Of a stretch of 33,448 nucleotides of DNA, positions 9,001 to 12,000 are shown one piece after another. Each line of letters begins with the position of its first letter. Within the stretch, counting starts at the first letter, position 1. The stretch lies in IMG/VR virus record IMGVR_UViG_648028025_000008; one strand, given 5' to 3'. The position numbers were made by a program. The stretch comes from a virus (Duplodnaviria; Heunggongvirae; Uroviricota; Caudoviricetes).

Positions 9001-12000
9001 ATGTTAGTAACGGCCTGAGCGTTCCGCCAGTCCGGCGACAACTGGCGGCCCCCAAACGCCCGTCGGGGCCAACGCCAATTGAGTTGCTGAAACAGGAATA
9101 TGAACGCCGGAAAGCGGCTGGTTTTGTTTGAGTTGAGAAGTGATTTTTTACCGGGAGGAAATTTATGGAGACTGTTTTTGACGCACTGAAAGCGATGGGA
9201 AAAGCCACGTCGGTAGAGCTGGCTGCGCGACTTGATATCAGTCGTGAAGAAGTACTGAACGAGCTGTGGGAACTGAAAAAGGCTGGCTTCGTTGATAAAA
9301 GCGTATACACCTGGCGTGTGGCTGATAACAACGTTCAGCAGGAACAGCCAGCGCCAGAAGAAACCACCACGGCAACAGAAGCGAAAATCTCAGAGTGCGA
9401 TTTAACCGCGACGATTGAACAACGCGGACCACAAACGGCGGATGAACTGGCTACGCTGTTCGGTACAACATCCCGCAAAGTTGCTTCAACGCTGGCAATG
9501 GCAATCAGCAAAGGTCGTCTGATTCGCGTAAACCAGAACGGTAAAATTCGTTACTGCATACCAGGTGATAATTTACCAGCAGAGCCGAAAGTTGAATCGG
9601 TAGCGGAAACCGATGGTAAAGCCTTTCCTCAGCCAGCCGGTGTTCGTTACCGGTACAGAAAGATGCAACACAGGAAGATATTAAAACAGAAACTGTGGCG
9701 GACATTGTGCAGTCGCTGCCATCGTTTACTGCAACGCGAGAAGATGATTTGATTTTGCCATCGCTGCATATGGCAAATCGCGAACTGCGTAGGGCGAAGA
9801 ATCATGTCCAGAAGTGGGAGCGAGTCTGCGCCGCGCTGCGGGAGCTGAACAAGCACCGGGATATGGTTGCCGGGATTTGTCGGAAGTCCGGGCAATGAGC
9901 GGATGGTGCAGGCCTGAAATCATGATACTAACAATGAAGGTAAAATGCATCGGCAGTCTGATTGGTCGTAGTGAGGCGGCGGTCAGGATGAAAGCCCAGG
10001 TTAAGGGAATAAGCCTGATTCTGCGGGGTGATTTTCACCAGTCAACAAAATATCCGTAGCGCGATAACGGTCAAAAATTATGGCGCTGACACTTTTGTGC
10101 CACTGGAGATGACTGTACCTAAGTTCAGGGGAGAAGAACACGTCCGGTGGGATGGTCGGGCCAGATTTAAAGGGCAGGTCATGGCTCCAGCCTGTACGCT
10201 GGCAATGGAGGCTGCCTGGCGGGAAATTGATATGGGAACCACGCCACTCAGGGATTTACTGCCGGTCCAGAGAATAAATTCCTGTTACGGTTACACCACT
10301 GTGATCTTGCAAGTGCAGGAAAGTAGGTCTACACGGTAACGCGAGTGCGTGTAACTTTTGATGTCATTCCCGTAGAAACACCGGACAAATTTTCGCTGAC
10401 AGGTCATGCAGAAGGTATAAATCTGCAGATTATGGACAATTACGGATATCCGGCAAGAGCCGGAAAAAGCATGCCGCCTCTAATTCTCAGTGGAAGATGG
10501 ACTTGATTATACTCATTGCATTGTCAGAAATAGTTATCCATTAAAGGCTGGCTATTCCAAACAGGATGTTGATTACAAAAATGTAATCAACATGTAAGGT
10601 TTATACTCTTCAATATGCGTATAATTTTCCTTATTTTGTTGACTTTAAATAACAAGCTATGCACGAGGTAAAGTCGGATAAGTTTATCTGGATGTAATAT
10701 ATATTATTTGTAGTGTTTATAACTTTATTTCATGATAACCAATAAAAGGAGTTTTTTATGAGGAACATAATGGCAGGTTTTTTAATATTCCTGTCTTCTG
10801 CTGCTTATGCTGATATCAATCTGTATGGTCCTGGTGGCCCGCATACAGCCTTGCTTGATGCAGCCAAACTTTATGCCGAAAAAACAGGTATTATAGTGAA
10901 CGTTCATTACGGCCCACAGAACAAATGGAATGAAGATGCCAAAAAAAATGCAGATATCTTGTTTGGCGCATCAGAACAATCTGCTCTGGCTATCATTCGG
11001 GACCATAAAGACAGCTTCAGTGAAAAAGATATTCAGCCTCTTTATCTGCGAAAAAGTATTTTACTGGTAAAGAAAGGTAATCCTAAAAATATCCGGAGTA
11101 TTGACGACCTGACCAGACCTGGGATTGGCGTAATTGTTAATGATGGTGGTGGTACCAGTAATACATCAGGCACTGGCGTCTGGGAAGATATTGCCGGACG
11201 TAAAGGGAATATAGAAACTGTCGCCGCAATCCGAAAAAATATTATTTTATATGCGCCCAATAGCGGAACTGCACGTAAGGCTCTTGAGAATCAGCCTGGA
11301 GCAGATGTCTGGATAACCTGGGCTGACTGGGCAGCCAGTAATCCAGAAATTGGTGATGTCGTGGAAATAGCGCCAGACTACGTGATATGGCGTGATATGA
11401 ACATTACAGTACGTCAGGATGCAAATGATGAAACCCGTCGATTTGCAGAATGGCTACAAACCGATGAAGCGGCGCCTGCATTCAAAAAATATGGCTGGAC
11501 CAGGAAAGGCACTTGACATCCTCGTCCTTCAGGACGTGGATTCTTTTTCCGGATGCCGCGCCAGCGGCATGTAGGGGCAGCTCACAAAACGGAAAAAATT
11601 GTACGCTAAGCCTCGCCAGGTGAACTGAATTCATTCCGATATGGGAATTCCCATATCGGGCGAAAACGGTTTGCTGTAACGGCAGAGTTAAGTAGGATTG
11701 CTGCGGGTGCTTGAGGCTATCTGCCTCGGGCATGAACACCAACGGCAGATAGATAAAAGCCCCACCCGACTATAAATCGAAGTGAGGCCCCTATATGCTC
11801 GTCACATATAGATTGCCTCTTACGGACCGAAAGGTCAAGGAGAAGCAGGCTATGAAGCAGCAAAAGGCGATGTTAATCGCCCTGATCGTCATCTGTTTAA
11901 CCGTCATAGTGACGGCACTGGTAACGAGGAAAGACCTCTGCGAGGTACGAATCCGAACCGGCCAGACGGAGGTCGCTGTCTTCACAGCTTACGAACCTGA

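Follow-up and report, generated by a model that had tools for sequence, protein, structure and literature searches.

The paa/adfO gene of an ompW prophage lies between two unrelated palindromes, one in its cassette and one in the phage backbone

Analysis of a 33,448-nt stretch of caudoviricete DNA (IMG/VR record IMGVR_UViG_648028025_000008, hereafter the window) centred on a gene for a substrate-binding protein that is probably exported, which a preliminary description made from the sequence alone had presented as an orphan bracketed by two perfect palindromes. The window is an entire degraded lambdoid prophage at ompW, running 33 kb from int to a duplicated 3′ fragment of ompW. The forward-strand open reading frame (ORF) in question encodes a 252-aa protein with the N-terminus MRNIMAGFLIFLSSAAYA, continuing as DINLYGPGGPH after the predicted cleavage site. 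One palindrome (palindrome 1) lies upstream of the ORF, and the other (palindrome 2) lies downstream, ahead of a hok/sok type I toxin-antitoxin locus (Table 1).

Table 1. Features of the paa insertion and its surroundings, in window coordinates.
Feature	Position	Strand	Basis or remark
Cargo left end	9869–10063	+	Sequence only in paa-carrying prophages; annotated small ORF 9895–10059 inside
Fimbrial-subunit pseudogene, frameshifted	10064–10597	+	RefSeq annotation; tblastn
Palindrome 1, cassette 5′ boundary, candidate operator/activator site	10566–10593	.	Centred about 52 nt upstream of the transcription start predicted near 10632
Putative paa −10 hexamer TATAAT	10620–10625	+	TATAAT in five alleles, TATGAT in one; −35 region poor
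Ribosome-binding site AAGGAG	10746–10751	+	6 nt before ATG; kept in 5 of 6 alleles, not in the most diverged (P0005 contig)
paa (adfO), 252 aa, AcfC/PEB3 family	10758–11516	+	DNA identity, SBP_bac_11, PDB matches
paa terminator: hairpin CGTCCTTCAGGACG plus T-rich tail, resembling an intrinsic terminator	11523–11546	+	Terminator scan
Second hairpin ATGCCGC-GCCA-GCGGCAT, cassette right end	11553–11584	+	End of plasmid-allele similarity; RNA folding
Small membrane-protein ORF relic (3′ end of a 34-aa ORF; stop 11626–11628)	11611–11628	+	Alignment with paa-less prophages
Palindrome 2	11636–11659	.	Backbone; 7 nt past the small-ORF stop; the hok/sok RNA region begins about 45 nt farther on
hok/sok (ckf) type I toxin-antitoxin locus	11663–12100	+	Rfam sok, ORFs, hokD annotation, terminator scan
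sok/hok-leader RNA region	11705–11854	+	Rfam RF01794, 103.9 bits (gathering 59), E 7e-24
mok	11795–12007	+	ORF
hok	11852–12007	+	ORF; hokD annotation
hok terminator	12076–12093	+	Terminator scan

A 1901-bp sequence around the ORF matches, at 100% identity, at least 561 E. coli records annotated ‘paa: AcfC family adhesin Paa’. The annotated paa (WP_001449026.1), with DNA 100% identical to the window ORF, is present in hundreds of genomes, PPompW phages annotated Paa/AdfO are 99.9% identical to the window region, and about 575 of 5426 complete E. coli genomes carry paa. The window ORF is paa/adfO, a virulence gene of attaching-effacing and Shiga-toxin E. coli; it has the same DNA and the same annotation as the gene for Paa/AdfO (porcine attaching-effacing associated protein; z2053, OI-57, strain EDL933), with no gene-level difference between the two. 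The prophage corresponds to the OI-57/CP-933O/PPompW type, O-island 57 of O157:H7, and its cargo, according to the annotation of an identical prophage in strain E2865, includes nleA, nleH1-2, nleF, nleG, and espM1. In OI-57, paa stands in a prophage at ompW and is followed directly by the hok-like ckf, an arrangement that the window matches; adfO (z2053) and ckf, a hok-like killer gene, are markers of OI-57 at ompW (PMC8565820, PMC9729726). Because these OI-57/CP-933O marker genes match the window locus, the finding is already known: it is paa/adfO in a known prophage, a molecular risk marker for enterohaemorrhagic E. coli (EHEC) that is listed in virulence-factor databases. The gene itself is nothing new and is not an unrecognised one.

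With an estimated probability of about 0.85, the best explanation of the locus as a whole is that paa is virulence cargo of the ompW prophage, that Paa is independent of an importer, that palindrome 1 is regulatory, and that palindrome 2 is part of the phage backbone.

The cargo is an insertion of about 1.7 kb (roughly 9869–11610) in the early-right/nin region, with a DUF1627 gene on one side and a small-ORF/hok module on the other. On its left, similarity to the DUF1627-gene backbone of paa-less E. coli lambdoid prophages stops at about 9864–9868. On its right, the backbone resumes at about 11611, and paa-less prophages of ML35 and OkiPb01703 hold the 34-aa ORF, palindrome 2, and hok in matching order. 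The GC content is 0.27–0.31 upstream of the gene (10500–10800), about 0.35–0.47 within paa, and 0.50–0.58 in the flanks. The left part of the insertion includes a fimbrial fragment, which matches a 195-aa minor fimbrial subunit (L098/L099, 5923–6510) by tblastn at 75–82% identity in three frames with an internal stop. This homology ends at about 10552, 13 codons before the stop of the intact gene, and the annotated frame crosses palindrome 1 (...VDYKNVINM*). Intact copies, which encode a chaperone-usher minor fimbrial subunit, belong to fimbrial operons carried by a bovine E. coli plasmid and by chromosomes (L098, L099). Palindrome 1 was considered as the native 3′ end of the fimbrial gene (...VDYKNVIN*), an assignment rejected on account of where the homology stops and of the intact gene, which ends in ...FKLDYE* and is followed by the usher gene. 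The peptide read over palindrome 1 is identical in every context because the DNA is identical.

Within the insertion, paa forms a self-contained cassette of about 1 kb. These limits follow from paa alleles on plasmids (86–89% nucleotide identity), which resemble the window only from 10564–10572 to about 11577–11584, amid flanks that are all different (yacAB and a DUF4238 gene; IS1-flanked STa and repA; gldA and a RIO1 kinase gene). The cassette comprises, in order, palindrome 1, an AT-rich promoter/leader region, the ribosome-binding site, paa, its terminator, and the second hairpin. The core of the terminator hairpin, TTCAGGACG, is kept in the plasmid alleles, with its 5′ arm partly deleted in pCFS3246-1. 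In that F-type plasmid (L003, 3060–5956), the paa allele lies about 1 kb from an IS1 flanking the gene for heat-stable enterotoxin STa. The paa homologue of E. albertii is chromosomal and adjoins the aga operon. Like phage morons, paa is inserted between backbone genes and has a lower GC content, a putative terminator, and probably a promoter of its own. The paa unit is present or absent between backbone genes and deviates in base composition; a terminator-like site is called downstream of the gene, and the evidence for its own promoter is the conserved TATAAT, which was not called by the consensus scan. Unlike a typical phage moron, paa arrived with part of a fimbrial gene attached, and its cassette also circulates on F-type plasmids.

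Both palindromes in the preliminary description are present and are non-random relative to shuffled sequence. Palindrome 1 reads ATGTTGATTACA-AAAA-TGTAATCAACAT, with 12-nt arms that are each two nucleotides longer than first described, and palindrome 2 reads CCGATATGGGAATTCCCATATCGG. A search of the window for perfect palindromes with arms no shorter than 10 nt and loops no longer than 6 nt made 11 overlapping calls, which fall at six distinct sites, whereas dinucleotide shuffles of the window averaged 0.17 calls; arms of at least 12 nt arose in 0 of 200 shuffles. The bracketing of paa is accurate in that both palindromes exist, but they are not a pair, since palindrome 1 belongs to the cassette and palindrome 2 to the backbone, and the arrangement is coincidental. 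Comparison with regulator motifs (CRP, Fur, TyrR, CpxR, PhoB, LysR T-N11-A, IHF, and Fis) gave no convincing match for either palindrome. The literature searched contained neither the palindrome sequence nor any earlier account of a conserved promoter-proximal core or of palindrome 2 as backbone.

Palindrome 1 marks the 5′ boundary of the cassette, with the left junction at most 13 nt away in five different contexts. In one of these (L094/L095), the end of an IS2 lies 13 nt before the palindrome, and the downstream genes include two small fimB/fimE-like recombinase genes and one for an autotransporter. Across six alleles, 17 of the 18 positions of the core ATTACAA[A/C]AATGTAATCA do not vary, and the remaining 5′ region diverges; two of the six core-bearing alleles are 86% amino-acid alleles with 5′ regions that can otherwise barely be aligned. 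The core TGTAATCA lies 30–31 nt upstream of TATAAT in five alleles or of TATGAT in one, a hexamer that the consensus promoter scan missed because the −35 region is weak. Among complete E. coli genomes, palindrome 1 is found in 603 genomes at 609 places, only with paa and in essentially the number of paa carriers. Outer stem pairs are broken in three alleles with the AAAA centre kept, which argues for a DNA site over an RNA stem. Palindrome 1 is therefore probably a promoter-proximal regulator binding site specific to the paa cassette, as judged from sequence conservation. A dimeric transcription factor would bind it, and its place just upstream of a promoter with a good −10 and a poor −35 element would be an activator-type position. 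No further palindrome-1-like sites beyond chance were found in the window. The 18-mer core has 20 matches in IMG/VR without paa, two of them paa-type contigs that end before the gene and the rest unrelated AT-rich sequences, among which two recurrent groups read as coding (YYKNVIN and DYKNVIK).

The protein carries the Pfam domain SBP_bac_11 (PF13531), a type II periplasmic binding protein domain, over residues 20–247 of 252 (E 5.5e-34). Searches against PDB matched residues 11–248 to PEB3 (E 1.2e-81) and AcfC (E 3.5e-81) at 52–55% identity, and in alignment A5 Paa is 52–53% identical to AcfC/PEB3 homologues of V. cholerae and Campylobacter. Across 18 aligned homologues (Enterobacterales, Aeromonas, Vibrio, Francisella, Helicobacter, and Campylobacter), 68 columns are invariant, including SNTSGTG-WED, PNSG, and W-TW-DW. 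By inspection, residues 1–18 (10758–10811) look like a Sec-type signal peptide with a positively charged N-terminus, a hydrophobic core, and no lipobox cysteine, and the A-X-A cleavage motif AYA↓D aligns with the N-terminus of mature PEB3. The substrate-binding protein of the preliminary description is borne out by the domain assignment, and its signal peptide is probable.

Several of these relatives have been studied. AcfC is a periplasmic protein that binds mucin and sulfated glycosaminoglycans and acts in chemotaxis to mucin, not in adhesion (PMC5976639), PEB3 binds 3-phosphoglycerate and is described as its transport protein (PMC12469816, PMC3417527), and an O157 adfO mutant adheres poorly to HeLa cells, AdfO/Paa promoting adherence (PMC8565820). 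Expression of the EDL933 homologue of paa is higher in bovine rectal content (PMC8524897). By analogy, Paa would reach the periplasm through the Sec pathway and would adopt a type II substrate-binding fold with the conserved anion-binding loop SNTSGTGVWED; its ligand would most likely be a small anion with phosphate or sulfate. It would then serve colonisation as a ligand sensor or an adhesion-promoting factor with no need for an ATP-binding cassette (ABC) importer. This proposed role matches the mucin chemotaxis of AcfC, the 3-phosphoglycerate binding of PEB3, and the HeLa adherence attributed to AdfO, and the earlier suggestion of a receptor or sensor in place of a transporter component agrees with the published work on AcfC (PMC5976639) and AdfO (PMC8565820).

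AcfC of V. cholerae (PDB 4JB7) and PEB3 of C. jejuni (PDB 2HXW, 3FIR, 3FJ7, and 3FJG) have the SBP_bac_11 fold, as Paa does, and the three proteins are alike in their identity of 52–55% over the mature protein, in export, which for Paa is predicted, in having no linked ABC transporter, and in being implicated in gut colonisation. They differ in their genetic settings: acfC is co-transcribed with the chemoreceptor gene acfB under ToxT, whereas paa in the window has no partner gene, and peb3 is controlled by BumSR, whereas the paa upstream region is unrelated to those of acfC and peb3 except in being AT-rich. PEB3 is N-glycosylated in Campylobacter, and reported ligands vary between AcfC and PEB3.

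The preliminary description had also called the gene an orphan, and here it was right: the cognate permease and ATPase genes sought are annotated nowhere in the 33-kb prophage, as judged from the identical prophage of strain E2865 between int and the ompW fragment. No ABC genes adjoin five other paa alleles on plasmids or contigs. Among 51 family loci from many phyla (42–87% identity), none has an adjacent ABC ATPase gene, and the neighbours in the family loci (L011–L090) are heterogeneous: Burkholderia has a SLAC1/TehA anion channel there, Serratia an ECF sigma factor, and Sulfitobacter a LysR regulator, and a cupin also occurs. The orphan state is real and common to the whole AcfC/PEB3/Paa family.

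Palindrome 2 is phage backbone adjoining hok, not cargo, and is older than the paa insertion. None of the plasmid copies of the cassette carries it. The sequence around palindrome 2 has matches in 874 of 5426 E. coli genomes, and about 300 matching records have no paa-linked segment; with dozens of unrelated phage contexts besides, this palindrome, at least, is the kind of common repetitive element that the preliminary description had named as a finding against its proposal. The exact 24-mer is present in 52 IMG/VR stretches and 45 metagenome stretches. Its 20-bp core has no fewer than 45 distinct flank contexts, and the contigs concerned range in GC content from 0.28 to 0.64. Intergenic copies often lie 2–20 nt past a stop codon, once past a major capsid gene. 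No conserved neighbour gene accompanies these intergenic copies, which are found instead beside capsid, DUF551, and unknown-function genes, and the window contains no second copy. In L211 (6228–6313), the two copies of a 27-bp direct duplication, GATTAAATTCTGCGCGCATTGGTTGCC, flank palindrome 2, and L214 has a 12-bp one at about 1476; the other 43 contexts have none. Palindrome 2 was considered as a CRISPR spacer in L211 and rejected, there being only two repeat copies.

About 20 of roughly 40 contexts from the exact 24-mer scans place palindrome 2 inside KilA-N genes, where it encodes DMGIPIS. These palindrome-bearing genes belong to the BstA family (phrog_6287, ‘BstA abortive infection system’, E 2.7e-89), the PADLOC BstA model matches the C-terminal domain of their proteins (1e-19 to 5e-24), and the genes lie directly downstream of cI. 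One palindrome-bearing BstA-like gene is that of vB_EcoS-666R9 (ON470614.1, 12608–13381). A 42-nt match at 88% had suggested that palindrome 2 is just the remnant of a KilA-N gene, an idea that is insufficient, because paa-less prophages hold palindrome 2 at that same backbone site and dozens of contexts share the palindrome only.

Four other explanations were weighed against the reading of paa as importer-independent cargo with a regulatory palindrome 1 and a backbone palindrome 2. Paa could be a true transport component that feeds a chromosomal ABC importer elsewhere, for example of the sulfate/thiosulfate or phosphate type. Profiles of sulfate, thiosulfate, and molybdate binding proteins do match Paa weakly (E 6e-5 to 1e-3), the literature on PEB3 speaks of transport, and canonical importer-linked substrate-binding proteins (SBPs) such as Sbp/CysP for sulfate and ModA for molybdate have the broad superfamily and the anion-binding loop in common with Paa. 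Unlike Sbp, CysP, and ModA, however, Paa has no permease/ATPase operon, and on curated sulfate/thiosulfate/molybdate SBP models it scores far under the cut-offs (about 22 bits against 155–308; best 22.6 bits against 288). Together with the 51 family loci and the movement of paa as a single-gene cassette among prophages, plasmids, and chromosomes, this makes a transport role improbable. The two palindromes could instead act as RNA, as terminators, insulators, or mRNA-stabilising hairpins that shield paa and hok from early-right read-through. Both fold into stable hairpins (−14.3 kcal/mol, z −3.7, for palindrome 1; −18.3 kcal/mol, z −3.3, for palindrome 2), and the copies of palindrome 2 just past stop codons would suit such a role. 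Yet the terminator scan calls neither palindrome, no T-run (U-tract in the RNA) follows either, and the stem of palindrome 1 is AT-rich; structure does not account for the exact identity of palindrome 2 in at least 45 contexts, and the AAAA loop of palindrome 1 is invariant while outer stem pairs are broken in L003, L094, and L102. The upstream neighbours of palindrome 1 also differ in each context, so there is no common upstream transcript, and a function in RNA seems unlikely. Least probable of all, the palindromes could be the ends of a mobile cassette, as recombination or transposition sites that brought paa into the phage. Palindrome 1 does sit at the left similarity edge in five independent contexts, palindrome 2 is close to the right junction, and the cassette-end hairpins are each followed by CATGTA(A/G)GG (10591–10599 and 11568–11576). 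Against this, palindromes 1 and 2 have no common sequence, right cassette ends vary among contexts with no recombinase consistently linked, and target-site duplications are not consistent, being found around palindrome 2 in only 2 of 45 contexts with the others at background. Palindrome 2, moreover, is missing from all plasmid cassette copies and stands at the identical backbone position in prophages that never received paa, by which the mobile-cassette reading is largely refuted. Both cassette-end hairpins begin with ATG and finish with CAT, then GTA(A/G)GG (CATGTAAGG and CATGTAGGG), a likeness that is possibly coincidental and comes with no supported mechanism of mobility.

The remaining alternative concerns palindrome 2 and is tentative, with odds clearly against it, though better than those of the other three. 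Suppression of BstA comes from aba, a short piece of cognate DNA in the bstA locus itself that acts as DNA (Owen et al. 2021, PMC8585504). It is because BstA is neutralised by such cognate DNA that palindrome 2 might, speculatively, be read as an orphan anti-defence element, a binding site, decoy, or aba-type immunity site of one BstA (KilA-N) subfamily. Phages and prophages without bstA would then carry copies of palindrome 2 and replicate where resident prophages express BstA. The identical 24-mer lies inside genes of the BstA family beside cI, as aba is a short DNA element inside a bstA-family gene, and the exact DMGIPIS codons have a probability of 1e-5 to 1e-3 under each gene's codon usage, in genes with GC contents at third codon positions (GC3) of 0.19–0.70. 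A degenerate scan for DMGIPIS found the exact palindrome or a central one-base variant in about 16 of 25 independent flank clusters, against about 3% expected. The 20–24-mer recurs across the many flank contexts described above, often in non-coding sequence just past stops, and 874 E. coli genomes have palindrome 2 against 137 with this bstA-like gene. On the other side, the only mapped aba, that of phage BTP1, is a 63-bp element at the gene start that relies on CCCGCC direct repeats rather than a palindrome (PMC8585504), whereas palindrome 2, 24 bp long, is an inverted repeat and falls at codons 59–66 in another BstA subfamily. Unlike aba, the window copy is intergenic, upstream of hok, with no KilA-N/BstA gene in the window annotation; it lies outside a bstA locus and has no terminal CCCGCC direct repeats. 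The palindrome-bearing proteins match BTP1 BstA in the C-terminal domain only, the DMGIPIS motif itself is missing in more distant homologues (54–60% identity), and the searches selected exact matches, so the apparent conservation is inflated.

Several points weigh against the preferred account of paa as importer-independent cargo with a regulatory palindrome 1. The promoter against which palindrome 1 is placed is itself a predicted one, and the palindrome matched no known regulator motif. The paa homologues of E. albertii, Salmonella, Yersinia, and Citrobacter have no copy of it upstream, and two E. coli alleles also lack it; likewise, none was found upstream of distant homologues in 33 loci or in the Salmonella, Yersinia, P0008, and P0010 alleles. 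Because several homologues have no palindrome 1 upstream, it is not essential to the family. The ligand, location, and phenotype proposed for Paa are drawn from homologues and from the Paa/AdfO literature, and the ligands of the homologues disagree, with sulfated glycans for AcfC and phosphorylated metabolites or citrate for PEB3. AcfC showed no adhesion role in cell lines, and a distant, unlinked transporter partner would escape inspection of the gene neighbourhood.

Beyond the cassette, similarity to the hok loci of other phages begins at 11663. A sub-threshold match to the Hfq-binding small RNA isrK in Rfam (24.9 bits against a gathering cut-off of 50) covers 12016–12097, over the hok terminator region. 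A perfect hairpin, AACAAAACCCGC-CCACAA-GCGGGTTTTGTT, lies at 15003–15032, directly after the Q antiterminator gene (14247–14942), and is probably the late-operon terminator. Farther along, a hairpin with a GC stem, AAAACCGGAGTCCGGCTCCGGTTTT, occurs twice about 4 kb apart (22007–22031 and 26073–26103, the second copy with 13-nt arms), and the pair looks like a repeated terminator-like element. A perfect AT-rich palindrome with 13-nt arms, TAATAATATCAAT-CC-ATTGATATTATTA, is found at 24373–24400, in the effector-cargo part of the prophage.

For paa, the 18-bp core at a fixed distance from the putative −10 element is a handle for finding the regulator of a colonisation factor that is raised in bovine rectal content. 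For palindrome 2, the link to BstA is the only lead here worth an experiment. If palindrome 2 were a BstA-binding or immunity site, it would help to locate unmapped aba elements and would show phage escape from BstA. If true, this would give a bstA-less EHEC prophage a 24-bp ‘stolen’ antidote in polylysogens with BstA-encoding prophages, and it would be the first orphan anti-defence element working as DNA alone, spread across unrelated phages.

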